Shown: one piece after another, positions 7,036 through 60,787 of the stretch | Numbering within the stretch: position 1 is the stretch's first letter | How the letters are laid out: each line of letters starts with the position of its first letter | NCBI GenBank assembly: GCA_045611765.1 | Contig: JAZKXT010000012.1 | Location: 7,759-71,758 of the forward strand | Source: Clostridia bacterium | Lineage (GTDB): Bacteria; Bacillota; Clostridia; TANB77; CAG-465 | Reading direction: 5' to 3' | DNA length: 64,000 nt | Notes under the pieces: model-generated | Databases searched by the model: none | Seen by the model: the letters and a program-made list of their open reading frames with translations, nothing else | What the model was told of the DNA's origin: nothing | Made by a program: the position numbers and the translations under genes

Positions 7036-8496
7036 ATGAAATTTATAAAAAAGAAAATAGTGAACAAGTTAGTTGTAAAAGATAAAGTGTCATTAATATC
7101 TAAAATTACAGACAGATTTAAAGACTGTGCGGATTTTGAATGTAATAAAATTGTGTCTCCTGTTACAGCTGTTGAAATATATAAGTTGAGCATGGGGCAA
7201 TTTGTAGACAAGCTAATAGTAGATGAAACAATTTTACAGCCCATAGCTAAACGCTTAGATACAATTAAGAATACTACAGATTTATTAAGCATTATTAGGA
7301 GTGGTGAAATATATCACATAGATGCAAAGGTAGAAACGGATGTAGATAAAATTGTATCCGCTATACTTCAAGCAAACTTTGTACTTGTGTGTGAGAATCA
7401 AGCATATTTGTTTAATGTAATAGGATATAACAAAAGGAGTATAGACAAACCAGAAAACGAGTCCTCAGAGAAAGGAGCTAAAGAGAGCTTTATAGAAACA
7501 GCTGTTATAAATATTTCTCTTGTCAGAAGACGTTTGCAAACTGAGAAATTAAAAGTTGTAGATTTTGAAGTTGGTACAGAAACAAAAACAAAAGTAAGTA
7601 TAATGTATGTTGAAGGGATTGCAGCGGATGAAGTAGTTAATTTAGTAAAGGAAAGAATAAAAAATATAAATGTACCAAGTCTTGTTTCTGTAGGGGATTT
7701 TGAAGAACATATTATAGACAGAAAGTACAGTATATTTCCCCAAACTATTGCTACAGAAAGACCAGATAAAGTAGCGGCAAATGTTATTGAAGGAAAAGTT
7801 GCAATATTTGTTGATGGCTTTCCAAGTGCATATATTGCACCAGCAGTATTTCCTATGTTCATGCAAGCATCAGAAGCGTATAACATTAATTACTTTGTAA
7901 GCTCGTTTATTAGAATGTTAAGATACGTTTGTGTATTTATAGCTACGTTATTCCCAGCGCTATATATAGCGATTACAACCTTTCATCACGAGATGTTACC
8001 CACAACACTTGCAGAAAGTATCATACAGAGCAAACAAAATGTTCCTCTTCCGGCTTTTTTAGAAATTATAATAATGTTACTTGCTTTTGAAGTGCTACTT
8101 GAGGCTGGTGTTAGAATGCCTAAAACTGCAGGACAGACGGTATCTATTATTGGAGCGTTAATTGTAGGTGAAGCAGCTGTAAACGCAAAGTTTGTTTCGC
8201 CTATAGTTGTAGTTATAGTAGCTATATCGGCTATATGTGGTTTCGTAATCCCAAATAGGGATTTGGCAAATGGCTTTAGAATGGTAAGATTTGGACTTGT
8301 CCTTGTAGCTTCAGCGGCAGGTTTCTTCGGCATGTCTGTTGCAATAATTGCGCTATTCTATTATTTAGTTTCGTTAGAAAGTTTTGGTGTCCCATATCTT
8401 AAACCCTTTACTTCAAATGATGGCAAAAATGTATTGGCAGATACTTTGTTTAGAGAACCAATAAATAAATCTAAAGGGAAAATGGCAAGGTGGTAG
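7036..8496 (+). CDS. spore germination protein, GerA/GerKA family (A subunit)
   Basis: Conserved GerXA core (GKVAIFVDGFPSAYIAPAVFPMFMQASEAYNINY) and C-terminal transmembrane helices. Confidence 0.85.
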   Translation: MKFIKKKIVNKLVVKDKVSLISKITDRFKDCADFECNKIVSPVTAVEIYKLSMGQFVDKLIVDETILQPIAKRLDTIKNTTDLLSIIRSGEIYHIDAKVETDVDKIVSAILQANFVLVCENQAYLFNVIGYNKRSIDKPENESSEKGAKESFIETAVINISLVRRRLQTEKLKVVDFEVGTETKTKVSIMYVEGIAADEVVNLVKERIKNINVPSLVSVGDFEEHIIDRKYSIFPQTIATERPDKVAANVIEGKVAIFVDGFPSAYIAPAVFPMFMQASEAYNINYFVSSFIRMLRYVCVFIATLFPALYIAITTFHHEMLPTTLAESIIQSKQNVPLPAFLEIIIMLLAFEVLLEAGVRMPKTAGQTVSIIGALIVGEAAVNAKFVSPIVVVIVAISAICGFVIPNRDLANGFRMVRFGLVLVASAAGFFGMSVAIIALFYYLVSLESFGVPYLKPFTSNDGKNVLADTLFREPINKSKGKMARW

Positions 8497-19323: not shown

Positions 19324-19920
19324 TTAGCTTTGTTGAGTCTTCCAGTAGTCGTAGATGATGTTGGATTTTTTGGATATACAATCGTACTTGAAGTACTGTG
19401 CAAATAGTTTGAGCTTTTCTTCGTGGTGAAGTGCTGTCAAATTGTATTTCATGAGTTCGCTGTGGAACTGCTCGTATTGCCTAAACATGCATATTTCAGG
19501 ATATTGAGGCTGAAGTATCAAAAGTTCAGGTAAAAATTCTGCAGCCATTTTTGGCCCATAGGATTCTTTGGGGGAATATCCGTACGTTGCCGCAAACTCC
19601 ATGGCTACTTCATCATCGACGCTTGAAGACGCAAGAGACCTATACATGTCTTCTAAGAAATCGGGACCGACCTCAGAAGCCCAACCGTCACATGCGGATA
19701 AATCTTTGACGTAGCATGGGTTTATAAACCATGAAGATTCTTCGGCAAATTCCATTGATGGACTGTAGGATTGAATAAATTTGATGCACAGGATATTTTC
19801 ATCTTCGAAACTGGGGCGATGCCTATCTACGATAAAACATTGCATCTCTTCTGCTGAAGAGTCGACTAACTCGCGCTCGCCCAACCGCGCGATAAGCTTT
19901 TTGACATAAATGTCAATCAT
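19324..19920 (-). CDS. hypothetical protein (GC-elevated orphan cassette A)
   Basis: A 198-aa ORF with a codon composition (~45% GC) unlike its neighbours. It has its own near-consensus promoter and terminator. No recognisable motif. Confidence 0.5.
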   Translation of the reverse strand: MIDIYVKKLIARLGERELVDSSAEEMQCFIVDRHRPSFEDENILCIKFIQSYSPSMEFAEESSWFINPCYVKDLSACDGWASEVGPDFLEDMYRSLASSSVDDEVAMEFAATYGYSPKESYGPKMAAEFLPELLILQPQYPEICMFRQYEQFHSELMKYNLTALHHEEKLKLFAQYFKYDCISKKSNIIYDYWKTQQS

Positions 19921-25336: not shown

Positions 25337-26290
25337 ATGAAGAAAACTGTTGCTACCATCATCGCTGATCAGAAGGCTGCTGAGTATTTCTGCCTCTTGA
25401 CCCCTGTTCAAGCAAAAAAAGTTCTTTTTGCAATGAGCCGGCTTGAGGGAAATCAACGTCTAGGAGATTCCAATGTCGCAGAAGTGCGTAAAATCGCTGA
25501 ATTTTACGATGGTGTAATCACTTCCCATTATGCCAAAGAACTGGCTACTTATCTGGCAAGTGAATATGCGAAGAAGACCCCGAGGGTACTTCTCACAAAG
25601 AAACAGGTGGAAGAATACACTCATGCAAAATACAGAAAGTTGTATGATGCATTAGGCATCTATGGATTCGATTATGTGATTACGGCTTTGGCACAAGGAA
25701 AAGCGTATGTGGCCAATCCTGAAAACGGAATCGATGAAAAGAATATGCTGAGTGCGTTACGCTGGGATGAGAGACGCGAAGGCGAAAACCCTGTGATTTC
25801 CAATAACCGGCATCGTCGTAAGGGACTTCAGTTGGTCGGCTTGGGTGATATGGTGGATGTGCTGATGCCTTATACCTACATCATTGCCAGCGTATATGAG
25901 CTGATTACCCCTGGTACACATATCGTTTCCGACATGGCAAACATGACCGAACAAGAAGAGGTTGCTGCAGAGTGCACTCCTGTAACGGTGCGAGACATGA
26001 AGATTCACTTCATCGAGAACGCACATATTATTCTGGATTTCTATGGCACAATCAAGCCGAAAGTGCCTGAGGGATTTTTTGAAGAAGAACTTGTGGAAGG
26101 CTCTACAACATATCTTCTGGCTCAGCGGGGACTGGTCAAGGACTCTAAAGCGGTGTTACAGTATGTTGAACAGAACAAGCTGTATACAGCTTGCCTTGAG
26201 AAGCTGCATGAAATTTTCTCTGATGAGGAAATGACGACTATTCAGGAGCATAAGGAAGTTATCCGGGAGCTCATTAAAAACTCTTGGTAA
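25337..26290 (+). CDS. hypothetical protein (GC-elevated orphan cassette B, 317 aa)
   Basis: About 45% GC against roughly 29% background. AAGGAG ribosome-binding site. No recognisable catalytic motif. Confidence 0.55.
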   Translation: MKKTVATIIADQKAAEYFCLLTPVQAKKVLFAMSRLEGNQRLGDSNVAEVRKIAEFYDGVITSHYAKELATYLASEYAKKTPRVLLTKKQVEEYTHAKYRKLYDALGIYGFDYVITALAQGKAYVANPENGIDEKNMLSALRWDERREGENPVISNNRHRRKGLQLVGLGDMVDVLMPYTYIIASVYELITPGTHIVSDMANMTEQEEVAAECTPVTVRDMKIHFIENAHIILDFYGTIKPKVPEGFFEEELVEGSTTYLLAQRGLVKDSKAVLQYVEQNKLYTACLEKLHEIFSDEEMTTIQEHKEVIRELIKNSW

Positions 26291-28023: not shown

Positions 28024-28452
28024 ATGGCAGAGAAGAAAGTTACTCATGTTGTTAAACTACAAATTGAAGCAGGTAAAGCTAACCCAGCGCCACCAGTTGG
28101 ACCAGCTCTTGGACCTACAGGAATAAACATTATGCAATTCTGTAAAGAATATAATGAGAAAACTGCAAAAGACGCAGGAATGATATTCCCAGTTGTGCTA
28201 ACAGTTTACCAAGACAAATCATTTGAGTTTATAATCAAAACACCACCAGCAGCAGTACTATTAAAGAAAGCAGCTGGTATAGCTAGTGGTTCAGCAAAAC
28301 CACACAAAGATAAAGTTGCTAAAGTAACACTTGCACAAGTTGAAGAAATTGCAAAAACTAAAATGCAAGATTTAAACGCAGCCTCTTTAGAGTCAGCAGT
28401 ATCTATGATAAAAGGAACTGCAAGATCAATGGGGATCGTTGTTACTGAATAA
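28024..28452 (+). CDS. rplK: 50S ribosomal protein L11
   Basis: [38 protein letters not shown]. Confidence 0.97.
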
Positions 28453-28502
28453 AAATGGGAGAGTATAACTCGCTAAAACCAAAGGAGGGAAAAATCGTGA
28501 AT

Positions 28503-29180
28503 AAAAGCAAGAGAATGACAGAAGCCAGAGCTCAAGTTGAAGCAAGATTATATGAAATCGATGAAGCTTTAGAACTAATTGAAAAATTACCAAAAGCTAA
28601 ATTTGATGAAAGTATAGAAATGCACGTTAAACTTGGCGTTGATTCTAAGCAAGCAGACCAACAAGTAAGAGGTACAGTAGTACTTCCAAATGGTACTGGT
28701 AAATCTAAAAAAGTTTTAGTACTTGCTAAATCTGAAAAAGCAGCAGCCGCTGAAGCTGCAGGAGCAGATTACGTTGGAGACGACGATATGATAGCTAAAA
28801 TCGCTAACGAAGGTTGGTTAGATTTTGATGCTGTTGTAGCAACTCCAGATATGATGCCAGCGCTTGGAAGAATAGCTAAAATACTAGGACCTAAAGGTTT
28901 AATGCCAAACCCTAAAGCTGGTACAGTTACAGTTGATACTGCTAAAGCAGTTGCTGAAATTAAAGCAGGTAAAGTTGAATACAGATTAGATAAAAACAAC
29001 ATAATCCATGCTTCAATTGGTAAAGTTTCATTCGGAACAGAAAAAATAAAACAAAACTATGAAACATTACTAGAGGCTATAGTTAAAGCAAAACCAGCTG
29101 CTGCAAAAGGAACTTACTTAAAATCAGTTGCATTGTCAACAACTATGGGACCTGGAATAAAAATATCAACAAAAATATAA
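28503..29180 (+). CDS. rplA: 50S ribosomal protein L1
   Basis: GTG start 6 nt after a GGAGGG ribosome-binding site. Contains [26 protein letters not shown] and [14 protein letters not shown]. Confidence 0.93.
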
Positions 29181-29186
29181 TGAAAG

Positions 29187-29211
29187 TACCGCAAAGCATG
29201 CGGTATTTTTC
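29187..29211 (+). terminator. rho-independent terminator after rplA
   Basis: TACCGCA-AAGCA-TGCGGTA stem followed by TTTTT. Confidence 0.7.
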
Positions 29212-29226
29212 TTTTCGGTGAAGTTT

Positions 29227-30645
29227 ATGAAAGAAGATTTAATTAAGAAATTGGTAGATACATTTAAGGTTGAAGCAGAGAAATACAGTAATCAATTAGA
29301 AGGTGTTGTAAATTATAAATGCGAGGAGTTTTTTAGAAAAAATAATCCAGCAAAGGGCTATCACTCTGTAGATGCAAGTATAATGTTTAAGAATTTTGTT
29401 TTGAAACTGGAGTACAAAATAAATATAAGTGCTTTGCTTCCAAAATCTACAATAGAAATGCGTTTTATGTTTGAAAATGGAAAACTGCCAGTAGAGTTTT
29501 CGATTTATGATTTACTAAATGTAATACAGCCGAATGATTTTAAATGCTATACATTTAGCTATATTACAACTGAGTATAAAATGAAGGAAGTTTTAGAATA
29601 CTTGGTGGATACATTTAGAGGATATAAGGAAGAGATAGAAAAAACAAGTCAAAATGCGGAAAATATTAAGGTATTAGAAAATCTTGTTGAAGAGAAGATA
29701 AAATTGTTTTTAAGAGAGGATATTTTAAAATCACGCAATGCATTTTACTTAATGCACATGCTTGAGTGGTATTATGTACTCGATATTTCAAGATTTACTG
29801 CGGCTTCATATATCAATTATACAACTGGAGAATATAACAAATCTATAAAAGGATATAAAAAATTAAAGGGTAAATTGACAGATTATGAACAGAGATTAGT
29901 AGAACATATGAAATTAAATAGCCATGAAATTCAAACGCCTGTTAGGGATGACATGAATACGTTAGCCAAAGCAATGAAGCTTAAAAATGCGAAAACGGGT
30001 TTAGTGGCTATGTGCCTAGCGTGGATTGTTCTTATGCCTATATGGTGCACAATTTATGATTTAGTCTATAATATTGCAAGATATTTCTTTTCTAAAGATG
30101 CGGTATATGTTGTATATGAACTTCCGATTATAATATTTTTTACTGCTTTTATAACAGCAATGGTTCATACATATTTTACTCGTAGAATAGTATATAAGCT
30201 GTTATTTAAGAAGAAATATAATGAAATAAAAGCGCTAGAAGAAATACAACATAACGAAAAACGTGAACAATTCATAAACAAATTACTTCAGTTCGTAATA
30301 GCAGCAAGTTTAGTATTTGCAGTACTTATCGCAAATACAAATATGACGTTTTTTAAGGGACACTTTAAAGATAATTCGAATTTGTTGGATATAAAAGGAA
30401 CTGAATACAATTACAAAGATGTTTATTGTGTGTATAAAGCAAATGGTGCGCTAAACAATTTAGGAGAAGTTGTTAATAATCCCACATACGTTATAGTACT
30501 AAAAGGTGGAACTCAGATAAATTTATATAATATTGCCACTTTTGAGGATATTAAACAAAATATTATACCAATATTGGAAAATCAAAACATAGAAATACGA
30601 GAAATAGATTTGATAGATAATATAGAACAAGATTTAAATAAATAA
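29227..30645 (+). CDS. hypothetical membrane protein (473 aa, about three central transmembrane helices)
   Basis: AT-rich, host-like composition. No family recognised. It begins about 15 nt after the rplA terminator, with no obvious promoter of its own. Confidence 0.45.
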   Translation: MKEDLIKKLVDTFKVEAEKYSNQLEGVVNYKCEEFFRKNNPAKGYHSVDASIMFKNFVLKLEYKINISALLPKSTIEMRFMFENGKLPVEFSIYDLLNVIQPNDFKCYTFSYITTEYKMKEVLEYLVDTFRGYKEEIEKTSQNAENIKVLENLVEEKIKLFLREDILKSRNAFYLMHMLEWYYVLDISRFTAASYINYTTGEYNKSIKGYKKLKGKLTDYEQRLVEHMKLNSHEIQTPVRDDMNTLAKAMKLKNAKTGLVAMCLAWIVLMPIWCTIYDLVYNIARYFFSKDAVYVVYELPIIIFFTAFITAMVHTYFTRRIVYKLLFKKKYNEIKALEEIQHNEKREQFINKLLQFVIAASLVFAVLIANTNMTFFKGHFKDNSNLLDIKGTEYNYKDVYCVYKANGALNNLGEVVNNPTYVIVLKGGTQINLYNIATFEDIKQNIIPILENQNIEIREIDLIDNIEQDLNK

Positions 30646-30689
30646 AAGTAAAGTCGAGACGCTAGTTTCGGCTTTTATCATGTTTAGAA

Positions 30690-30718
30690 TTGAAAAATTA
30701 TGTAAATTGTGGTATAAT
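30690..30718 (+). promoter_or_regulatory. sigma-A promoter of the TPM–TPM–LemA operon
   Basis: TTGAAA at 30690–30695, a 17-nt spacer, and TGGTATAAT with TATAAT at 30713–30718. Confidence 0.6.
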
Positions 30719-30823
30719 ATTAATCGGTTATTAAAGTGTATCCATTACCAATTGGTGAAAGAAGATTATGTATTTTAACTAATGTATAAACAAATCAAAT
30801 AAAAATGTAAAAGGAGAATGTTT

Positions 30824-32362
30824 ATGAGAAAAACACTACGGATACTAAGTTTAATTTTTATAGCACTGCTGATGTGTGCAAGTACGTTAATCTTTGTGTA
30901 CGCCGCTGCCACTATTCCAGCTGCTACATCGGAGTTTTACGTAAATGATTTTGCCGGAGTATTTACTGAAACCGAAAAAAACAAGCTTGTTTCTAATGCT
31001 GTTACACTGGCAAATGAGCATGACGGTATACAAGTAGTTATAACAACTATTAAGTCGTTGGATGGAGATAGTATTGAAAACTATGCGTATAACATGTATA
31101 ACCAATATGGCATTGGCAAAGGCGATATGGGACTTCTTATTCTTCTTGCAACAGAGGATAGAGAAATTCGTGTCGAAGTAGGAAGAGGTATGGAAGGCTA
31201 TATCAACGACGTCAAAGCAGGACGGTTTATGGATAACTACGCAATTCCGAGTTTTAGCGAAAACAAGTTTAATGAAGGTTTGATAGCGCTTCAAGAAGCT
31301 TTTATTACGGAGATTGAGAAGTGTATTAGTTCTGAAGCCAATCCTAAACCAAACTTTGGAATTCAAATTGATGTAGACTGGGGAACTGTGCTTTTTGTTC
31401 TTTTAATAATTGTAACTGCAACTGCCAGTATTTGGGGCATAGTACTCATCGTGGTTAAAGTGAAAAAGAAGAAAAAAGAAAAAAGGGAATATGTGCAAGA
31501 GTTAAAAAAACGTATTGATACTCTTAATTATACGATTGACTCTCGGAACACTACTATCGCCAGTTTGAAAGCGGAAAACCAAAAATTATCTAACCAGCTA
31601 AGTTCGGAGAGGCAAAAGTCATCTAATCAACTAAACGAAGCCAGGCAATCTTTGGATGCTATGGAAAACTGGCATACACGTATACTTGCGATCTATCCGG
31701 ATGCGGATAAAAAAGTAGAAGAAATGATACAAGCTGAAAAAGTTGCCAAGGATAAAGAGACCGCTAAAAGAGTAGATAAACTCATCGAATCTGTTATAAA
31801 TTTGAGTCCTGACAAAGATTTAATTGAAACATTAGAAAGTATAAAATACGAAATAGACTTTTTGAGTCAGGATGAAGCTCAATATTTGGAATCAGATATA
31901 AACAGATTTAACACTTTGTTTAAGGCCTCTAGAACTCTAAAAAGGGAATACGATGAGAAGGTTGAACAGGAACGCAGGCAACGTCAGACCGAGCGTCGCA
32001 AACAGAAAGGCGCGGAGATTACCAAACAGCTTTTGAGTATAATATCAATAGTTGGCATTGCACGCGCAAGCCACTTGCCAAAACTTAGAAGTGCAAGGTG
32101 CCTTTACAAAGACCTGGACAGCGAAACAAAAAGTTATGTAGATTCCTCTGCTATTTCGAAAATTGAAGAGTTGTTTAAGCAAGCTAAACGAGATGAAGAG
32201 GAAGAAGAGGCGCGTAAACGTAGAAAAAGGCAAGAGGAAGAAGAGGCTGAACGTCGCAGAAGACAGGCTATGCATAATTCCACAATATCTCGGACTCATT
32301 CAAGCGGTCATGGTGGGTTTGGCGGTCGTTCTGGTGGCGGCGGTTCCTCAAGACGTTTTTAA
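30824..32362 (+). CDS. TPM-domain (TLP18.3/Psb32/MOLO-1, DUF477) protein with a transmembrane helix, a ~300-aa coiled-coil or charged insert, and a Gly-rich C-terminal tail
   Basis: Signal/anchor sequence, then the TPM core (YVNDFAGVFTETEKNKL...GDMGLLILLATEDREIRVEVGRGMEGYINDVKAGRF), then a transmembrane helix. This is followed by heptad-like and R/K/E-rich segments (RRQRQTERRKQ; EEEEEARKRRKRQEEEEAERRRRQ) and a GHGGFGGRSGGGGSSRRF tail. Confidence 0.75.
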   Translation: MRKTLRILSLIFIALLMCASTLIFVYAAATIPAATSEFYVNDFAGVFTETEKNKLVSNAVTLANEHDGIQVVITTIKSLDGDSIENYAYNMYNQYGIGKGDMGLLILLATEDREIRVEVGRGMEGYINDVKAGRFMDNYAIPSFSENKFNEGLIALQEAFITEIEKCISSEANPKPNFGIQIDVDWGTVLFVLLIIVTATASIWGIVLIVVKVKKKKKEKREYVQELKKRIDTLNYTIDSRNTTIASLKAENQKLSNQLSSERQKSSNQLNEARQSLDAMENWHTRILAIYPDADKKVEEMIQAEKVAKDKETAKRVDKLIESVINLSPDKDLIETLESIKYEIDFLSQDEAQYLESDINRFNTLFKASRTLKREYDEKVEQERRQRQTERRKQKGAEITKQLLSIISIVGIARASHLPKLRSARCLYKDLDSETKSYVDSSAISKIEELFKQAKRDEEEEEARKRRKRQEEEEAERRRRQAMHNSTISRTHSSGHGGFGGRSGGGGSSRRF

Positions 32363-32388
32363 AAATACTGAAAAGGAGATGTGACAAA

Positions 32389-33135
32389 ATGATTAAAAAG
32401 CGGCTAGTGGTTTTGGCGGCGTTAATTGTATCGATGTTGCTCGTAATTACTTTTTCTGGATGCGAGCAGAAGCAAAACATTATTGTGCCTGAACTTAAGC
32501 AAAACGTCTATGTCTATGACCAAGACAGTTGCATAGACGATGAGGTGGAAGCTGAGATTAACCTCATGATAAAAGAGCTAGAGGAAAAAACAGAAGCTGA
32601 ATTTGCTATAATTTCTATTCAAGGGTTAAACGGATATACTATCGAAGAATATGCCAATGAATTGTTTAATACTTTGGGAATAGGAAAAGAAGGCAAAGAC
32701 AATGGTGTTTTGTTGCTCTTTTCAAAGGCGGATAAACGAGTAAGACTTGAAATTGGCAGAGGCTTAGAGGGTTGTCTGAATGATGCTAAATGCGGCAGAA
32801 TTTTAGATGATTATTTTGTACCTTATCGCGAAGAAGACGACTATACTACTGCGAGTAAGAATACTGTCATAGCTGTACTGAATGTTATCGCGGATGAGTA
32901 TCAAGTGGAACTTGAAAATGTGGAAGAAATGCAAGTTGATGAAGATAAGAAAAATGATGCACCAATATGGGTATATATTGTAGTTTTTGCACTTATCTTT
33001 ATAGTGGCAATTCTGAAAAGTTCTGGAGATAACGAGTGGTACGGTGGCGGTTACCATGGTGGCTTCTCTGGTGGAAGTCGTTCTGGCGGTGGCTTCGGTG
33101 GTGGCCGTTCAGGTGGTGGCGGAGCCTCGCGTTAA
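32389..33135 (+). CDS. TPM-domain (DUF477) lipoprotein with a transmembrane helix and a Gly-rich tail
   Basis: Lipobox-like ITFSGC. TPM core GVLLLFSKADKRVRLEIGRGLEGCLNDAKCGRI, then a transmembrane helix and GGYHGGFSGGSRSGGGFGGGRSGGGGASR. Confidence 0.75.
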   Translation: MIKKRLVVLAALIVSMLLVITFSGCEQKQNIIVPELKQNVYVYDQDSCIDDEVEAEINLMIKELEEKTEAEFAIISIQGLNGYTIEEYANELFNTLGIGKEGKDNGVLLLFSKADKRVRLEIGRGLEGCLNDAKCGRILDDYFVPYREEDDYTTASKNTVIAVLNVIADEYQVELENVEEMQVDEDKKNDAPIWVYIVVFALIFIVAILKSSGDNEWYGGGYHGGFSGGSRSGGGFGGGRSGGGGASR

Positions 33136-33183
33136 TTAAAGTGTATTAAAACATAATATAACATCATTTAGGAGGAATATTTT

Positions 33184-33759
33184 ATGAAAAATTCTACAAA
33201 GTGGCTCGTGATTATCTTGGTTATTGTAGCCGTAGTCGTCATCTGTTTTGTTTCTACACAGAACAACCTAGTAAACCTGGAGGAAGAAGTCAAACTTCAA
33301 TTCTCCCAAGTCGAAACAACATTACAACGGCGAAGCGACCTTATTCCCAATCTGGTAGCAACGGTTAAAGGCTATGCTACTCATGAGGAAGAAGTTTTTG
33401 TGCAGATTGCCGATGCAAGAGCAAAGCTTGCTGGAAGTATTAAAACTGGCGATGTAGATGATATTAATAAAGCCAGCAATGAGTTGGATTCTGCTTTGAG
33501 CCGTCTGCTTGTGATTACAGAAAATTATCCTGAACTCAAGGCAAACGAACAATTTGTCGGTCTCATGGATGAATTAGCTGGAACTGAAAATCGGATTGCT
33601 ATCGCAAGACAGAATTACAATGAAACGGTAGCAAAATACAATAAAGCCATTAGGATGTTCCCGACAAGCATTGTAGCAGGTATGTTGGGGTGCGAGTCCG
33701 CAGATTATTTTGAAGCGGATGATGATGCTAAAGATACCCCTGTTGTAGATTTTGGTTAA
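33184..33759 (+). CDS. lemA: LemA family protein
   Basis: N-terminal transmembrane helix followed by NLVNLEEEVKLQFSQVETTLQRRSDLIPNLV...ENYPELKANEQF, which is typical of LemA. Confidence 0.8.
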   Translation: MKNSTKWLVIILVIVAVVVICFVSTQNNLVNLEEEVKLQFSQVETTLQRRSDLIPNLVATVKGYATHEEEVFVQIADARAKLAGSIKTGDVDDINKASNELDSALSRLLVITENYPELKANEQFVGLMDELAGTENRIAIARQNYNETVAKYNKAIRMFPTSIVAGMLGCESADYFEADDDAKDTPVVDFG

Positions 33760-33765
33760 AGCGTA

Positions 33766-33793
33766 ATAGCGCCCTAATTTAGGGCGCTATTAT
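33766..33793. terminator. bidirectional terminator (13-bp perfect stem)
   Basis: AATAGCGCCCTAA-T-TTAGGGCGCTATT, between the convergent lemA and the M14 peptidase gene. Confidence 0.75.
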
Positions 33794-33812
33794 ATTATAC
33801 AAAATTAAATTG

Positions 33813-34943
33813 TTATATTAAAAATGATGCTGTGACAAGAATACCAATATTGTCTTGGTAAATAGTATCGAACTGGGAAAGTGGCAAAGGATTAGTACCT
33901 AGTCCTACTTCCATTGTATATGCTGGCAGGTTATATGTTTGTATAAACCAATCTTTAAAACCGGCAAAGCTAGAGGCGTAAGGCGTATCCTCGAGAGAAT
34001 ATCCACTAAGACTTGAAAATGTTTCTCCTATTTCTAAAGCGTTAGGTGGGTTATAATCTAAAAATTTCCAATATATTACCTCGCCTTGTGAATGATAAGT
34101 AAGCATAAGTTCGAAGTTGTGATTCATAGTAAAGTCGTAAAGAGCAATTGCTTCAACAGCTTCTAAAGGCGAATCGCCTACAAAATCTCTTGGCGCATAA
34201 CTAGTATAACCTTGTGAAAACTTAATTTGTCTTGCTTGTTCCCAAAGGGCAGGGAATTGAAGATTTAAGTCAATTCCTTGTACATTTGCTTTCCAACCAT
34301 TTGGAAAAGGAATGCTAGGATATCTTCTGGCAATTTGTCTTGCGTTCAAATACTCGTTTGAATTTTTATCTAATGTGCCTGTTACCAAGTCAATACCATC
34401 AGGGTTAAGCATAGGAACTATATATATTGTAGAAGTGTCATAAATATCCTTTGCAAATCTATCGAAAATTTTATCACCGCTAGCATAAGCAGTAGCATAT
34501 TCTTCTACAAATTTCATAAGTAGCGGTGAGCATATCCATTCGTTAGCGTGAGTGCCAGCGACATACAACAATTGTTTTGGGCCATTCCCAAGTTTAATAT
34601 ATGGAATGTCTTTATCCATTACGCTATCTCCGATTGAGCCTGATGAAATAAAAGTATATTTGTTTAGTAGAGCTTTAATATTAAGAATAAGAATATCATA
34701 AGCATATGGAATGGTAGTTGGAACTTGTGTATATGGTAACAGTAAATTCCAAGTGGTTTCGCCTACTATACCATCAGCTGTTATATTATTGTTTGCTTGA
34801 AATTCCTTGACTGCATTTAATGTGTTTGTTCCAAATATTCCATCGACTTCATTATCGTACAGCTTTAAATCCTTTAATGTCAATTGTAAGAAGTTAACTA
34901 GAGGTCCAAGTGAACCGTTTTGTAGTACTAACATAAATTTCAC
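33813..34943 (-). CDS. M14-family zinc carboxypeptidase (γ-D-glutamyl-diamino-acid endopeptidase-like) with an N-terminal peptidoglycan-binding domain
   Basis: PG_binding_1-like DGIFGTNTLNAVKEFQANNNITADGIVGETTW. M14 zinc ligand motif GTHANEW...E. Confidence 0.7.
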   Translation of the reverse strand: MKFMLVLQNGSLGPLVNFLQLTLKDLKLYDNEVDGIFGTNTLNAVKEFQANNNITADGIVGETTWNLLLPYTQVPTTIPYAYDILILNIKALLNKYTFISSGSIGDSVMDKDIPYIKLGNGPKQLLYVAGTHANEWICSPLLMKFVEEYATAYASGDKIFDRFAKDIYDTSTIYIVPMLNPDGIDLVTGTLDKNSNEYLNARQIARRYPSIPFPNGWKANVQGIDLNLQFPALWEQARQIKFSQGYTSYAPRDFVGDSPLEAVEAIALYDFTMNHNFELMLTYHSQGEVIYWKFLDYNPPNALEIGETFSSLSGYSLEDTPYASSFAGFKDWFIQTYNLPAYTMEVGLGTNPLPLSQFDTIYQDNIGILVTASFLI

Positions 34944-35031
34944 CTGATATATTGTATTACTAAAGGTCTATACATGTTCATTGGTGGTAAAATAAATTAT
35001 GCTGAGACTTAAAGAAATTTAACATAAACTG

Positions 35032-35060
35032 TTGACAAAATACAAATAATATATTATAAT
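35032..35060 (+). promoter_or_regulatory. consensus sigma-A promoter of rplJL
   Basis: TTGACA at 35032–35037, a 17-nt spacer, and TATAAT at 35055–35060. Confidence 0.7.
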
Positions 35061-35225
35061 AATAAGCGTAAATTGAATTTACCCAAGACAGTAGGTACAA
35101 ACATAAATCCTACCGAGGTGATTAGTAATCGTGTGAATATTCTTATTTTAAGATTGAGATATATGATACTGTTGCCTTATGGGTAACAGTATTTTTAATT
35201 AGACTAAAGGAAGGAGAGATTGTAA
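35061..35225 (+). promoter_or_regulatory. ribosomal protein L10 leader (autoregulatory 5'-UTR with an attenuator hairpin)
   Basis: A ~165-nt structured leader between the promoter and rplJ. An 11-bp hairpin (ATACTGTTGCC-TTATG-GGTAACAGTAT) followed by TTTTT lies about 35 nt before the ribosome-binding site, as in the Firmicute L10(L12)4-responsive attenuator. Confidence 0.6.
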
Positions 35226-35735
35226 ATGCCAAGCGCAAAAGTTTTAGAAGCAAAAAAAGCTCAAGTTAAAGAATTAGCTGAAAAACTTGCTAATGCTAAA
35301 ATGACTTTCTTCGTAGACTATAAAGGAATAACAGTTGATGAAGATAAGGATTTAAGAAAAGCATATAGAGAAGCTGGTAACGAATGTATGGTTATCAAAA
35401 ATTCTTTAATTAAGCTTGCTTGTAAAGAAGCAAAAATTGAAGGTTTAGACGAAGTTCTTGAAGGCCCTACAGCAGTAGTTATAGGAACTGAAGAATATAC
35501 AACTGGACCAAAAATTGCATATGATTTTGCAAAAACTCATGATTTCTATAAATTTAAAGCTGGAATCATGGATGGTAAAGCAGTAAACGTTGAAGAAGTT
35601 AACAAACTTGCTAAATTACCATCAAAAGAAGTTCTACTTACTCAACTTGCTTCTGCCCTTATCGGTAACATACGTAACCTAGCAGTAGTACTTGATCAAG
35701 TAGCAAAGAAAAACGAGGAACAAGTTAGTGCCTAA
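35226..35735 (+). CDS. rplJ: 50S ribosomal protein L10
   Basis: MPSAKVLEAKKAQVKELAEKLANAKMTFFVDYKGITV. Confidence 0.95.
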   Translation: MPSAKVLEAKKAQVKELAEKLANAKMTFFVDYKGITVDEDKDLRKAYREAGNECMVIKNSLIKLACKEAKIEGLDEVLEGPTAVVIGTEEYTTGPKIAYDFAKTHDFYKFKAGIMDGKAVNVEEVNKLAKLPSKEVLLTQLASALIGNIRNLAVVLDQVAKKNEEQVSA

Positions 35736-35769
35736 TAGACTAACATAGAAATTTAAGGAGGATTTTAAA

Positions 35770-36144
35770 ATGGAAAAAATAGAAAAAATAATCGCTGAAG
35801 TTGAAACTTTAACAGTTTTAGAACTAGCAGATTTAGTAAAAGCAATCGAAGAAAAATTTGGAGTATCTGCAGCTGCAGCAGTTGTAGCAGTAGCAGGTGG
35901 AGCAGCAGCAGGAGCAGCAGCTGGTGAAGAAAAAACAGAATTTAACGTAGTTCTTAAAGATGCAGGAGCTAGCAAAATTCAAGTAATCAAAGCAGTAAGA
36001 GAAGCTACAGGTCTTGGGCTTAAAGAAGCTAAAGATTTAGTTGATGGAGCACCAGCAACAGTTAAAGAAAACGTAGCTAAAGAAGAAGCTGAAAAAATGA
36101 AAGCAGCTTTAACAGAAGCAGGCGCAACAGTTGAACTTGTTTAA
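35770..36144 (+). CDS. rplL: 50S ribosomal protein L7/L12
   Basis: Ala-rich hinge, then the C-terminal domain [27 protein letters not shown]. Confidence 0.97.
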
Positions 36145-36204: not shown

Positions 36205-36660
36205 TTAAAGGCTGTTGTTTTTCTGGAATCTGTAATTGCGCATTTCTTTTTCAAATTGGTACACCGCTACTATGTGATTAACTTGTCTTTTGCCTGCTTT
36301 AGTACGATGTTTCTTTACAAGATACTCTAAATAGTAATAGCCATAAAATACAGACATACAAGTGGTAGCAACTACAAGTAGCCAAGCTAAGTTATAGAAG
36401 AAGCCAAAGTTAACGATGTAATCTCCATCTATAAAATCATAATTGTAAAACCAGGTAGAAGCTACAGTGTAACCGTTTTGCCGCATGAAAATGATTTCGC
36501 TTTTGTGAGGTTCGGGAATACTGTCAATGCTATAATAGGTGATTGCGGATTCGTTGTAGATGAGTGTTGTGATTACGAGTACGATGCAACAAGCGGCAAG
36601 TACGAATAACCAGAACGTTAATTTCTCTCTGAGGAAATCTCCTCTTTTGTTAGTGGACAT
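36205..36660 (-). CDS. hypothetical membrane protein (cassette H, about 151 aa)
   Basis: Three hydrophobic helices. Minus-strand promoter TTGCTT-17-TATAAT at about 36712–36684. Moderately GC-elevated. Confidence 0.45.
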   Translation of the reverse strand: MSTNKRGDFLREKLTFWLFVLAACCIVLVITTLIYNESAITYYSIDSIPEPHKSEIIFMRQNGYTVASTWFYNYDFIDGDYIVNFGFFYNLAWLLVVATTCMSVFYGYYYLEYLVKKHRTKAGKRQVNHIVAVYQFEKEMRNYRFQKNNSL

Positions 36661-36746
36661 AGTGTTGACCTCCATCTTTATATTTAATATAACATAATTA
36701 TATCATAAATTAGGCCAAAAAGCAAATTTATGTAAACGAACTACAT

Positions 36747-60340: not shown

Positions 60341-60787
60341 ATGGCAAACAGTAGTAATATTCGTAGTGGCAATATGAGAGTTCCTCATATGGTTGAGGAA
60401 GTCAACAAGCGGATTGCGGTTCTAGAACTGGGGTATAATCCGGAAACAATGCCTAAAAGAGTAAAGATAAAGCTGGAACAAGGAAGAAACTTCTTAGAAA
60501 TGATTAGCAAACCGCCTTATTGTACATGTAAGACTGTAAGCTCTTTAACACATATGATTAGTGATCGCCGGTCGGATTTACAGGCTAGGAGCATGGCTCT
60601 AGACTATAATATGCCGGGACATCAATTCAGTTTGTTTGAGCAACCTCAAGAAGTAACTCCTGAACAGCAAGAAGAAATTGCCAGAGAACAAATGTGGCTT
60701 AATCATGAGATTAATTGGCTGCACAAATGTTTGGGGATTTGTAAAAATAGAGATTATTTCGAGTATGCAAGACAGAGTGCTGATTAA
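60341..60787 (+). CDS. hypothetical 148-aa protein (GC-elevated cassette E)
   Basis: GTGAGGGA ribosome-binding site. Its own promoter (TTGTTT-17-TGATATAAT) and an 11-bp terminator hairpin at 60774–60800. Confidence 0.5.
   Translation: MANSSNIRSGNMRVPHMVEEVNKRIAVLELGYNPETMPKRVKIKLEQGRNFLEMISKPPYCTCKTVSSLTHMISDRRSDLQARSMALDYNMPGHQFSLFEQPQEVTPEQQEEIAREQMWLNHEINWLHKCLGICKNRDYFEYARQSAD

Follow-up and report, generated by a model that had tools for sequence, protein, structure and literature searches.

I analysed a stretch of 64,000 nucleotides (positions 7,759 to 71,758 of contig JAZKXT010000012.1, assembly GCA_045611765.1; hereafter the window, and all coordinates are counted from its first letter). 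This stretch is core chromosome with a low G+C content (31.9%) from an uncultured Clostridia-type bacterium, and it encodes SecA, a Clp ATPase, ComEC, AddB, DnaE, NifU, NusG, and ribosomal proteins. Between rplK-rplA (28024–29180) and the L10 leader with rplJ-rplL lie three same-strand open reading frames (ORFs) at 30818/30824–32362, 32389–33135, and 33184–33759, separated by gaps of 26 and 48 nt. They encode a long TPM protein, a short TPM protein, and a LemA protein. The unit is very probably a chromosomal LemA–TPM operon of a long-arm type. Its features are listed below, where SD stands for Shine-Dalgarno, TM for transmembrane, and AF2 for AlphaFold2.

30690..30718, plus strand: sigma-70-type promoter, with -35 TTGAAA (30690–30695), a 17-nt spacer containing TTATGTAAAT, and -10 TATAAT (30713–30718)
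30725..30823, plus strand: 5′ leader of about 100 nt with a hairpin, an SD-like tract, and the true SD GGAG (30813-30816)
30745-30758, plus strand: leader hairpin or palindrome TTACC-AATT-GGTGA
30757-30765, plus strand: SD-like GAAAGAAGA, directly after the leader hairpin
30824..32362, plus strand: long TPM protein, 512 aa (Pfam PF04536, 1.8e-30; the listed ORF starts at 30818 and has 514 aa)
30824..30910, plus strand: putative Sec-type signal peptide (MRKTLR, a hydrophobic core, and VYA/AA; read from the sequence and conserved in the alignment)
30941..31300, plus strand: TPM domain, presumably extracytoplasmic (Pfam envelope 42-161 in the 514-aa numbering)
31388..31462, plus strand: predicted TM helix, residues 189-213, then KVKKKKKEKRE (from the sequence; part of a continuous AF2 helix, 189-290)
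31463..31693, plus strand: putative cytoplasmic coiled-coil stalk, residues 214-290 (heptad test; one long helix in AF2)
31703..32209, plus strand: two tandem helical modules of ~70 residues, at about residues 294-377 and 392-462
32189..32272, plus strand: E/R/K-rich helix DEEEEEARKRRKRQEEEEAERRRRQ, helical in both AF2 models
32273..32359, plus strand: Ser/Gly-rich tail ending GGFGGRSGGGGSSRRF (family consensus GFGGxSGGGGASRGF-COOH)
32389..33135, plus strand: short TPM lipoprotein, 248 aa, with lipobox FSGC, TPM domain, TM helix, and Gly-rich tail GGGGASR (Pfam 6.8e-33)
33184..33759, plus strand: LemA, 191 aa, with an N-terminal TM anchor and a four-helix-bundle domain (Pfam PF04011, 1.2e-57)
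33764..33792: perfect 14-bp terminator-like hairpin, common to the operon and the convergent M14 peptidase gene

The initial annotation, made from the sequence, had described a self-contained TPM–TPM–LemA membrane operon, and the unit's own promoter, its tight gene spacing, its closing hairpin, and the Pfam assignments bear this out. The consensus promoter (TTGAAA-17) that it had pointed out was also confirmed; the match is 11 of 12 positions, with an extended -10 (TGgTATAAT, 30710-30718; TG at 30710–30711). In an 8.5-kb scan, in which consensus matches as a class were no commoner than in shuffled sequences, this promoter ranked second, behind a perfect promoter before the L10 leader. The supposed 13-bp bidirectional terminator is a hairpin that is stable on both strands (–21.7 kcal/mol, z = –5.1; other strand –20.1 kcal/mol, z = –4.3), while its stem is 14 bp long and its U-tracts are weak.

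The long TPM gene is real, but its product most likely has 512 residues rather than the 514 given before. The ATG at 30824 is the probable start because it follows GGAG (30813–30816) at a distance of 7 nt, compared with just 1 nt for the ATG at 30818, because a database copy of the protein (P0001) has 512 aa, and because the homologues begin with MxKTLR. An AF2 model based on 119 homologues (mean predicted local distance difference test score, pLDDT, 85.5) gives the order of parts as a signal peptide, an alpha/beta TPM domain, a disordered linker, a continuous helix from residue 189 to 290, two helical modules, a long charged helix, and a low-confidence Gly/Ser tail. In the same model, the extreme C-terminus (residues 506–511, 32339-32356; GGSSRR of ...GGGGSSRRF) is a beta-strand, and the last residues have a pLDDT of about 94.

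With PF04536, whose cutoff is 22.1 bits, the long and short TPM proteins score 105.9 and 113.8 bits. The top matches of the TPM domain in the PDB are BA41, Rhom172_1776, PG_0361, and AtTLP18.3. In a Foldseek search with the AF2 model, the structures 5anp, 7tbr, 2kw7, and 3ptj were matched at E = 8e-9 to 3e-5 with target-normalised template-modelling scores (TM-scores) of 0.73–0.88. The best of these was BA41 (5anp; E = 8e-9, TM-score 0.88), and the root-mean-square deviations were 1.6–1.8 Å.

The sequence between the TM helix and the Gly tail had been described as about 300 residues of heptad-like, highly charged sequence. Instead, it consists of a 77-residue stalk with the sole significant heptads, a duplicated helical module, and an E/R-rich helix. 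In a simple in-house test of a/d periodicity, other than COILS or Marcoil, the hydrophobic fraction at a/d positions of residues 214–290 was 0.59, compared with 0.40±0.05 in shuffled sequences (P = 0.0005). The heptad pattern was not significant by this test in the helices at 294–325, 359–410, and 441–483. The charged runs that had been quoted are part of the inter-module helix ERRQRQTERRKQ and part of the E/R/K-rich helix. The latter helix is taken here, from its residue pattern, to resemble an ER/K single alpha-helix spacer.

The two modules share ancestry, as hhalign aligned one half of the module region with the other at a probability of 95.3% (E = 2.3e-8), and homologues of ~620 aa have a third copy. 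An AF2 model of residues 288–484 reached a pLDDT of 94.8; this model has no PDB neighbour with E < 1, and no Pfam model covers the region. The module also recurs as tandem copies in five giant proteins (P0160, P0218, P0222, P0233, and P0238; 1,086-2,214 aa, with 5–22 matched stretches each). All of them except P0160 carry Listeria-Bacteroides repeats (Flg_new), Big_2, BspA-type leucine-rich repeats, or Laminin_G. Since tandem copies occur in such proteins, the distribution suggests that the ~70-residue module may be a generic rigid spacer.

The second gene encodes a paralogue of the first; the short and long TPM proteins are 27% identical over the domain and the TM helix (E = 7e-20). The short protein matches BA41 at 8.8e-15 over residues 30-244, through the TM region, and also matches PG_0361 and Rhom172_1776. 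As 18 of 22 short-TPM orthologues have a lipobox, the short-TPM domain is likewise predicted to be exported. As judged from their signals, both paralogous TPM domains are exported, one by a Sec signal and one by a lipoprotein signal, and the TM helix on the C-terminal side of each would keep it at the membrane. The arrangement of signal or anchor, TPM domain, TM helix, and Gly-rich tail, which had been recognised earlier in both proteins, was confirmed. The third gene product scores 194.4 bits against PF04011 (cutoff 26.2), matches Thermotoga maritima LemA (2ETD) at 4.6e-52, and has its hydrophobic segment WLVIILVIVAVVVICFV at residues 7–23.

Is the long form peculiar to this bacterium? A word-indexed search with the long TPM protein found at least 120 clusters of 488–632 aa that are 37–62% identical to it across about 89% of the length. 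When the query was just the cytoplasmic region, the word-indexed search returned one fragment, which is a limit of the index sensitivity, and an exhaustive hidden Markov model (HMM) search was used in its place. It found 225 representative clusters among 1.84 billion proteins, most of them 480–720 aa long and matched at roughly residues 280–520. The insert had been regarded as something that ordinary TPM proteins lack; these counts point to a conserved subfamily whose extra sequence is, by alignment and model, a conserved and structured cytoplasmic arm. Its carriers among the fetched loci are all metagenome-assembled genomes of uncultured gut or rumen Clostridia.

The ends of these proteins are also conserved. 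The GGGGASRGF end is near-invariant across the fetched long TPM proteins. In the fetched loci, the ending GFGGxSGGGG[AS]SR[GSH]F is found both in long TPM proteins and in the TPM proteins of ~290–330 aa that follow LemA in LemA-first operons. The short paralogue ends with GGGGASR and lacks the final two residues. The spacer between the membrane and this peptide is of two kinds, a Gly/Ser-rich flexible linker in the TPM proteins of LemA-first operons and a rigid helical arm in the long TPM proteins. The conserved elements thus appear, on alignment, to be an exported TPM domain, a TM helix with a basic cluster, a cytoplasmic spacer, and the terminal peptide.

The linkage of LemA and TPM genes was assessed in 86 loci, which came from a genome scan triggered by TPM peptide motifs alone, plus six contigs found by the exact long-TPM protein sequence. 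A LemA gene adjoins a TPM gene in about 85 of them, and the linkage is near-obligate. The arrangements were LemA–TPMshort (44 loci), TPMlong–TPMshort–LemA (20 loci), TPMlong–LemA (12 loci), and a few composites. In the window, LemA and the TPM genes are co-directional, and both TPM proteins have the Gly-rich tail motif. The locus resembles the LemA–TPM (COG1704/COG1512-type) pairs, in which the LemA (PF04011) gene has one or two genes for TPM (PF04536) membrane proteins as neighbours and these proteins end in a Gly-rich tail, and the same GGGG[AS]SRxF ending was found in 44 fetched LemA–TPM loci. It differs from them in that the order is reversed (long TPM first), an extra lipoprotein-type TPM paralogue is present, and a helical arm of roughly 270 residues replaces the flexible linker. 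Both the co-occurrence and the lack of an established function had been stated in the initial annotation; the former was confirmed by these counts, and the literature gave no functional study of the pair. The locus belongs to an already known, functionally uncharacterised kind of operon. It is modestly novel in two respects, namely the duplicated helical module, together with the terminal peptide, and the conserved leader.

The non-coding DNA 5′ of the long-TPM genes is conserved even where the encoded proteins are less than 50% identical and the cassettes lie in different surroundings. Many diverged loci have the spacer motif TTATGTAAA in front of their long-TPM genes. The window and the loci L001, L005, and L007-L034 have in common the promoter spacer TTATGTAAAT, a small hairpin or palindrome that lies 25–45 nt from the 5′ end of the transcript, and, directly after it, GAAAGGAGA. 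This arrangement of hairpin and GAAAGGAGA lies 60–81 nt 5′ of the real start in about 24 of 33 long-TPM leaders, 14 of which have the exact 9-mer. The hairpin variants keep their complementarity: TTACC/GGTGA in the window, and TTACT/AGTGA, TTCACT/AGTGAA, AACACT/AGTGTT, and TTCAA/TTGAA elsewhere. In an alignment of 13 leaders, 92% of the cells pair, three pairs have two-sided changes, and G·U pairs are present; 2 of 500 shuffled alignments did equally well. This promoter and leader arrangement is missing from 45 LemA-first operons. A permissive Rfam search with the leaders of the window and of L014 gave chance-level matches alone (E ≥ 0.2, far below the gathering scores).

STAB-SD elements are 5′ mRNA stabilisers of Gram-positive bacteria, such as GAAAGGAGG of Bacillus thuringiensis cry3A. 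The leader would seem to resemble this type most. As in STAB-SD, an SD-like purine tract, here GAAAGGAGA, stands 60–81 nt before the real start, beside a 5′ hairpin and without a properly spaced start codon. There are also differences. In the clade of L009–L017 and L020, the 3′ arm of the hairpin overlaps a terminator-like hairpin (GTGAGAGG…CCTCAC and a T-run) whose 5′ arm is the purine tract, and this suggests attenuation instead. In the clade of the window, no terminator is visible in the leader and the tract is weakened to GAAAGAAGA. The conserved element could instead be a DNA operator. The idea of a leader peptide encoded behind the SD-like tract was dismissed, since the mini-ORFs lack conservation (L001 has none) and the spacing between SD and AUG is 0–3 nt. 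A 17-nt near-repeat, CGGTTATTAAAGTGTAT at 30725-30741 (the start of the leader) and CGTTAATTAAAGTGTAT at 33130-33146 (the junction of the short TPM gene and lemA), may be due to chance.

How might the unit work? Transcription would start at the dedicated strong promoter, pass through the conserved leader with its 5′ hairpin and SD-like purine tract, and stop at the strong hairpin. The three bitopic membrane proteins most likely assemble into one membrane-spanning complex. The stalk of the long protein would probably dimerise, and its terminal peptide may be presented to a cytoplasmic partner. With a 77-residue stalk, two three-helix modules, and an E/R-rich helix, an extended arm would put tens of nanometres between the membrane and the terminal peptide. 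As a whole, the explanation of the locus as a long-arm LemA–TPM operon encoding a membrane-spanning complex seems somewhat favoured.

The role of such a complex can be stated more tentatively. By analogy with TLP18.3/Psb32, AscF, MOLO-1, and YdjH on the TPM side, and with LemA-like domains of the MamQ type and ML0451c, it is possible that the complex serves envelope or membrane maintenance as a non-enzymatic, heteromeric scaffold or chaperone that stabilises, assembles, or repairs membrane complexes or the membrane itself. TPM proteins have been described as partners or accessory subunits, namely TLP18.3/Psb32 in photosystem II repair, AscF in a respiratory supercomplex, MOLO-1 as a receptor auxiliary, and YdjH as a PspA partner (PMC11237479, PMC12419801, PMC13456599). 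The combination of a TPM domain with low-complexity or long coiled-coil sequence is also known from this literature (PMC11237479, PMC12419801, PMC13456599). LemA-like four-helix bundles have been proposed to be membrane scaffolds or remodellers (bioRxiv 10.64898/2026.07.15.738315). The LemA of the window is built like T. maritima LemA (2ETD), MamQ, and ML0451c, with an N-terminal anchor followed by a four-helix bundle; the setting of the triad, which is not a magnetosome, PIM, or NUDIX one, differs from that of MamQ and ML0451c. BA41 of Bizionia argentinensis (5ANP), 7TBR, 2KW7, AtTLP18.3 (3PTJ), Psb32 (8C7I), and AscF have the same TPM fold, while none of them has the cytoplasmic helical arm, and their reported roles differ (ATPase/ADPase, photosystem II repair, supercomplex subunit).

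It is a more speculative thought that the long-TPM operons of gut Clostridia are a distinct, self-regulated envelope device, in which a rigid arm presents GGGGASRGF to a cytoplasmic partner under the control of an unannotated cis-regulatory leader acting by attenuation or mRNA stabilisation. If this is true, the rigid arm would link what happens on the outside of the membrane to the cytoplasm. The device would then have two undescribed parts, the arm with its unannotated helical module and the leader, which comprises the conserved promoter spacer, a covarying hairpin, the SD-like tract, and, in some lineages, an overlapping terminator.

Several points weigh against the proposed complex and its leader. 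The literature search found no functional study of the LemA–TPM pair and no experimental or co-purification evidence for a LemA–TPM complex. The sole possible partners of the C-terminal strand in the AF2 model are the strands of the TPM domain, which lie on the opposite side of the membrane by the predicted topology. The orientation of LemA suggested by charge bias is ambiguous; the N-terminal flank is the more positive one here (2 vs 1), while the C-terminal flank is the more positive one in 56 of 87 homologues, so that LemA could meet either the TPM domains outside or the arms inside. In the window, the SD-like motif is degenerate, with GAAG for GGAG. The whole leader of the window group folds no better than shuffled sequences, and the claim of a structure is limited to the small hairpin. 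Finally, the functional model leaves the atypical codon usage of the triad unexplained.

LemA and TPM are among the more widespread bacterial membrane-protein families without an assigned function, and the present locus does not supply one. What it offers is a clearer picture of the parts: conservation falls on the exported TPM domain, the TM helix, and the terminal cytoplasmic peptide, and the spacer may be a floppy linker or a rigid arm. It also points to the terminal peptide, the duplicated module, and the conserved leader as elements that can be tested.

The composition of the triad is unusual. The G+C contents of the three genes are 0.388, 0.404, and 0.408, compared with a window mean of 0.319 and with 0.284 and 0.349 for the neighbouring 475-aa ORF and M14 peptidase gene. 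The initial annotation had put the genes at about 38–42% and the surroundings at about 29%; the rise is real, although the window mean is 31.9%. Expected values were calculated from the amino acids of each gene with the codon usage of the window's remaining 51 ORFs. The expected G+C is 0.34–0.35 and the expected G+C at third codon positions (GC3) is 0.20, whereas the observed GC3 is 0.33–0.35 (z = 7.4, 5.5, and 5.4; background median z –0.13, median absolute deviation 1.2). About half of the G+C excess is due to amino-acid composition (Gly, Arg, Ala, and Glu) and half to codon choice. In the triad, AGA, TTA, and ATA are rarer, and CGN, GGC, GCC, and CTG are commoner. The codon-usage comparison that had been proposed for these genes thus found them atypical.

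Is the triad found at the same place in related genomes? I compared the window with a metagenome contig (L001) and with two species representatives of GTDB (L007 and L008), whose RplA, RplJ, and Tex are 97–98%, 94–97%, and 95% identical to those of the window. All three have the same order, rplA, a gene of ~479 aa, long TPM, short TPM, LemA, M14 peptidase (minus strand), rplJ, rplL, and Tex. The sole difference is an extra NAD-salvage cluster of ~6 kb upstream of the triad. Since the relatives carry this cluster there, the rplA–rplJ interval is a variable spot. The triad is GC-raised in the relatives as well, with a G+C of 0.37–0.385 in L001 and a GC3 of 0.27–0.35 in L001 and L007, compared with 0.08–0.25 in the flanking genes. 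No tRNA, integrase, or transposase gene and no convincing flanking repeat (only short, chance-like matches) was found near the triad, and the triad region has no DNA match in plasmid or phage collections. Because the GC-raised triad occupies the same site in the three relatives and lacks hallmarks of mobility, the operon has long been resident between rplA and rplJ in this lineage and is not a recent import. A strong codon anomaly in an operon that related species nevertheless have in common, in place, is a caution for composition-based calls of horizontal transfer.

The triad has diverged much more than its neighbourhood. The long TPM, short TPM, and LemA proteins are 60%, 68–72%, and 80–84% identical to those of the relatives, compared with 95% for Tex and 85% for the peptidase. 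All three genes are under purifying selection (ratio of nonsynonymous to synonymous divergence, dN/dS, 0.07–0.14 against L001 and L007). An appreciable possibility, though I hold it to be below an even chance, is that the operon was acquired before the species split, or that its alleles have been replaced repeatedly by recombination. Incomplete amelioration or GC-biased gene conversion would then have left the GC3 raised, and extra divergence would also be expected. The lower identities fit this possibility, as do the proportions of synonymous differences (pS) against L007 and L001, which are 0.65–0.74 for the triad, 0.39–0.44 for Tex, and 0.47–0.53 for the M14 gene; these values are near saturation and confounded by codon bias and dN, and the 475-aa neighbour, which is not GC-raised, has a pS of 0.61–0.63. 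Other GC3 outliers are orphan or fast-evolving; an example is the ORF at 36205–36675, with a GC3 of 0.43–0.44 in both the window and L001. The cassette also occurs with its leader in unrelated contexts; L005, a more distant genome (48% identity), has the same cassette and leader in an unrelated context with a marginal G+C excess. On the other hand, weak expression or codon selection could be behind the GC3 excess. The divergence and the GC3 could be accounted for by any one of three processes: an old acquisition that is incompletely ameliorated, recombinational allele exchange, or weak codon selection. This possibility concerns the origin of the operon and is compatible with the functional explanation given above, the membrane-spanning complex.

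An enzymatic function is unlikely. In such a model, the exported TPM domains would be phosphatases or nucleotidases acting on extracytoplasmic substrates, with LemA and the arm as accessories. The Pfam family bears the name TPM_phosphatase, and activities have been reported for AtTLP18.3, Rv2345, and BA41 (cited in PMC13456599), the last of which is the closest solved structure. However, the TPM domain has been argued to be unlikely to be a phosphatase (PMC11237479, PMC12419801), AscF binds neither metal nor nucleotide (PMC13456599), and the divided literature has no agreed catalytic motif (PMC11237479, PMC12419801, PMC13456599). The model also leaves the conserved cytoplasmic arm and the terminal peptide unexplained. 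The phosphatase scaffold suggested in the initial annotation found no support in the analysis.

A PspA-linked envelope-stress module of the YdjH type, or an anti-phage defence system, is more doubtful still. The architecture of YdjH (TPM and a long coiled coil) matches, and a transcriptome of Flavobacterium columnare, the one hit of the literature search that concerned both genes, showed higher expression of a lemA gene as well as of a TPM-domain gene after deletion of sppA (PMC13236525). Bacillus subtilis YdjH, encoded in the pspA-ydjGHI operon (Ravi et al. 2024, PMC11237479), is likewise a TPM protein with a proposed chaperone-like membrane role; it was compared by its description alone. However, the partner here is LemA, and no pspA (ydjF), band-7 (ydjI), or zinc-ribbon (ydjG) gene lies beside the triad or in the related loci. 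The neighbours identified by Pfam are L1, an unknown membrane protein, an M14 peptidase, L10, L7/L12, and Tex, none of them a neighbour of the YdjH/PspA type. Anti-phage defence was rejected, as PADLOC gave no match for six proteins (the triad and its neighbours).

The horizontal acquisition that had been proposed from composition, if recent and with the triad as a foreign islet in a ribosomal-protein region, is the least probable of these possibilities: the GC3 excess, the unit's own promoter and terminator, the variability of the interval, and the cassette and leader of L005 in a different context would all suit it, but the operon is in place in three different species, a finding that the annotation itself had named as counting against it, there is neither a mobility gene or flanking direct repeat nor a plasmid or phage match, and no donor is visible, the nearest relative of the long protein being 62% identical among the matches listed.

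The other features of the neighbourhood are as follows.

29218–30645: membrane protein, 475 aa, predicted multi-pass, directly after the rplA terminator; 28% G+C
30650–30675: hairpin closing the upstream gene (–13.5 kcal/mol, z = –3.6)
33813–34943, minus strand: M14 peptidase with a peptidoglycan-binding domain, convergent to the operon
35064–35207: L10 leader (Rfam RF00557), followed by the rplJ-rplL genes (35226–36144)

The rplKA and rplJL genes, which are normally contiguous, are separated here by a 5.9-kb interval (29181-35063) that contains the 475-aa gene, the triad, and the convergent M14 peptidase gene. The 475-aa protein has no Pfam family above threshold; its gene is kept at the same place in the relatives, where the product has ~479 aa and 66-69% identity. 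In L001, L007, and L008, the NAD-salvage cluster lies between this gene and the triad and encodes an isochorismatase-like protein, NAPRTase, a NUDIX protein, NAD synthase, an NaMN adenylyltransferase-like protein, and NrtR. On the 3′ side of rplL, a small minus-strand ORF and then Tex are found instead of rpoB and rpoC.

Four other ORFs of the window have the same kind of GC3 excess as the triad, and none of them has a Pfam family: 19324–19920 (minus; z = 8.8), 25337–26290 (plus; z = 11.8), 36205–36675 (minus), and 60341–60787 (plus; z = 3.2). This suggests that the triad and the four ORFs form a class of GC3-rich, poorly conserved genes in an AT-rich genome. The ORF at 36205-36675, between rplL and Tex, encodes a 156-aa membrane protein and has a GC3 of 0.43. 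It is found at the same position in L001 with 36% identity, while its neighbours are 94-95% identical, and is apparently a hypervariable orphan gene.

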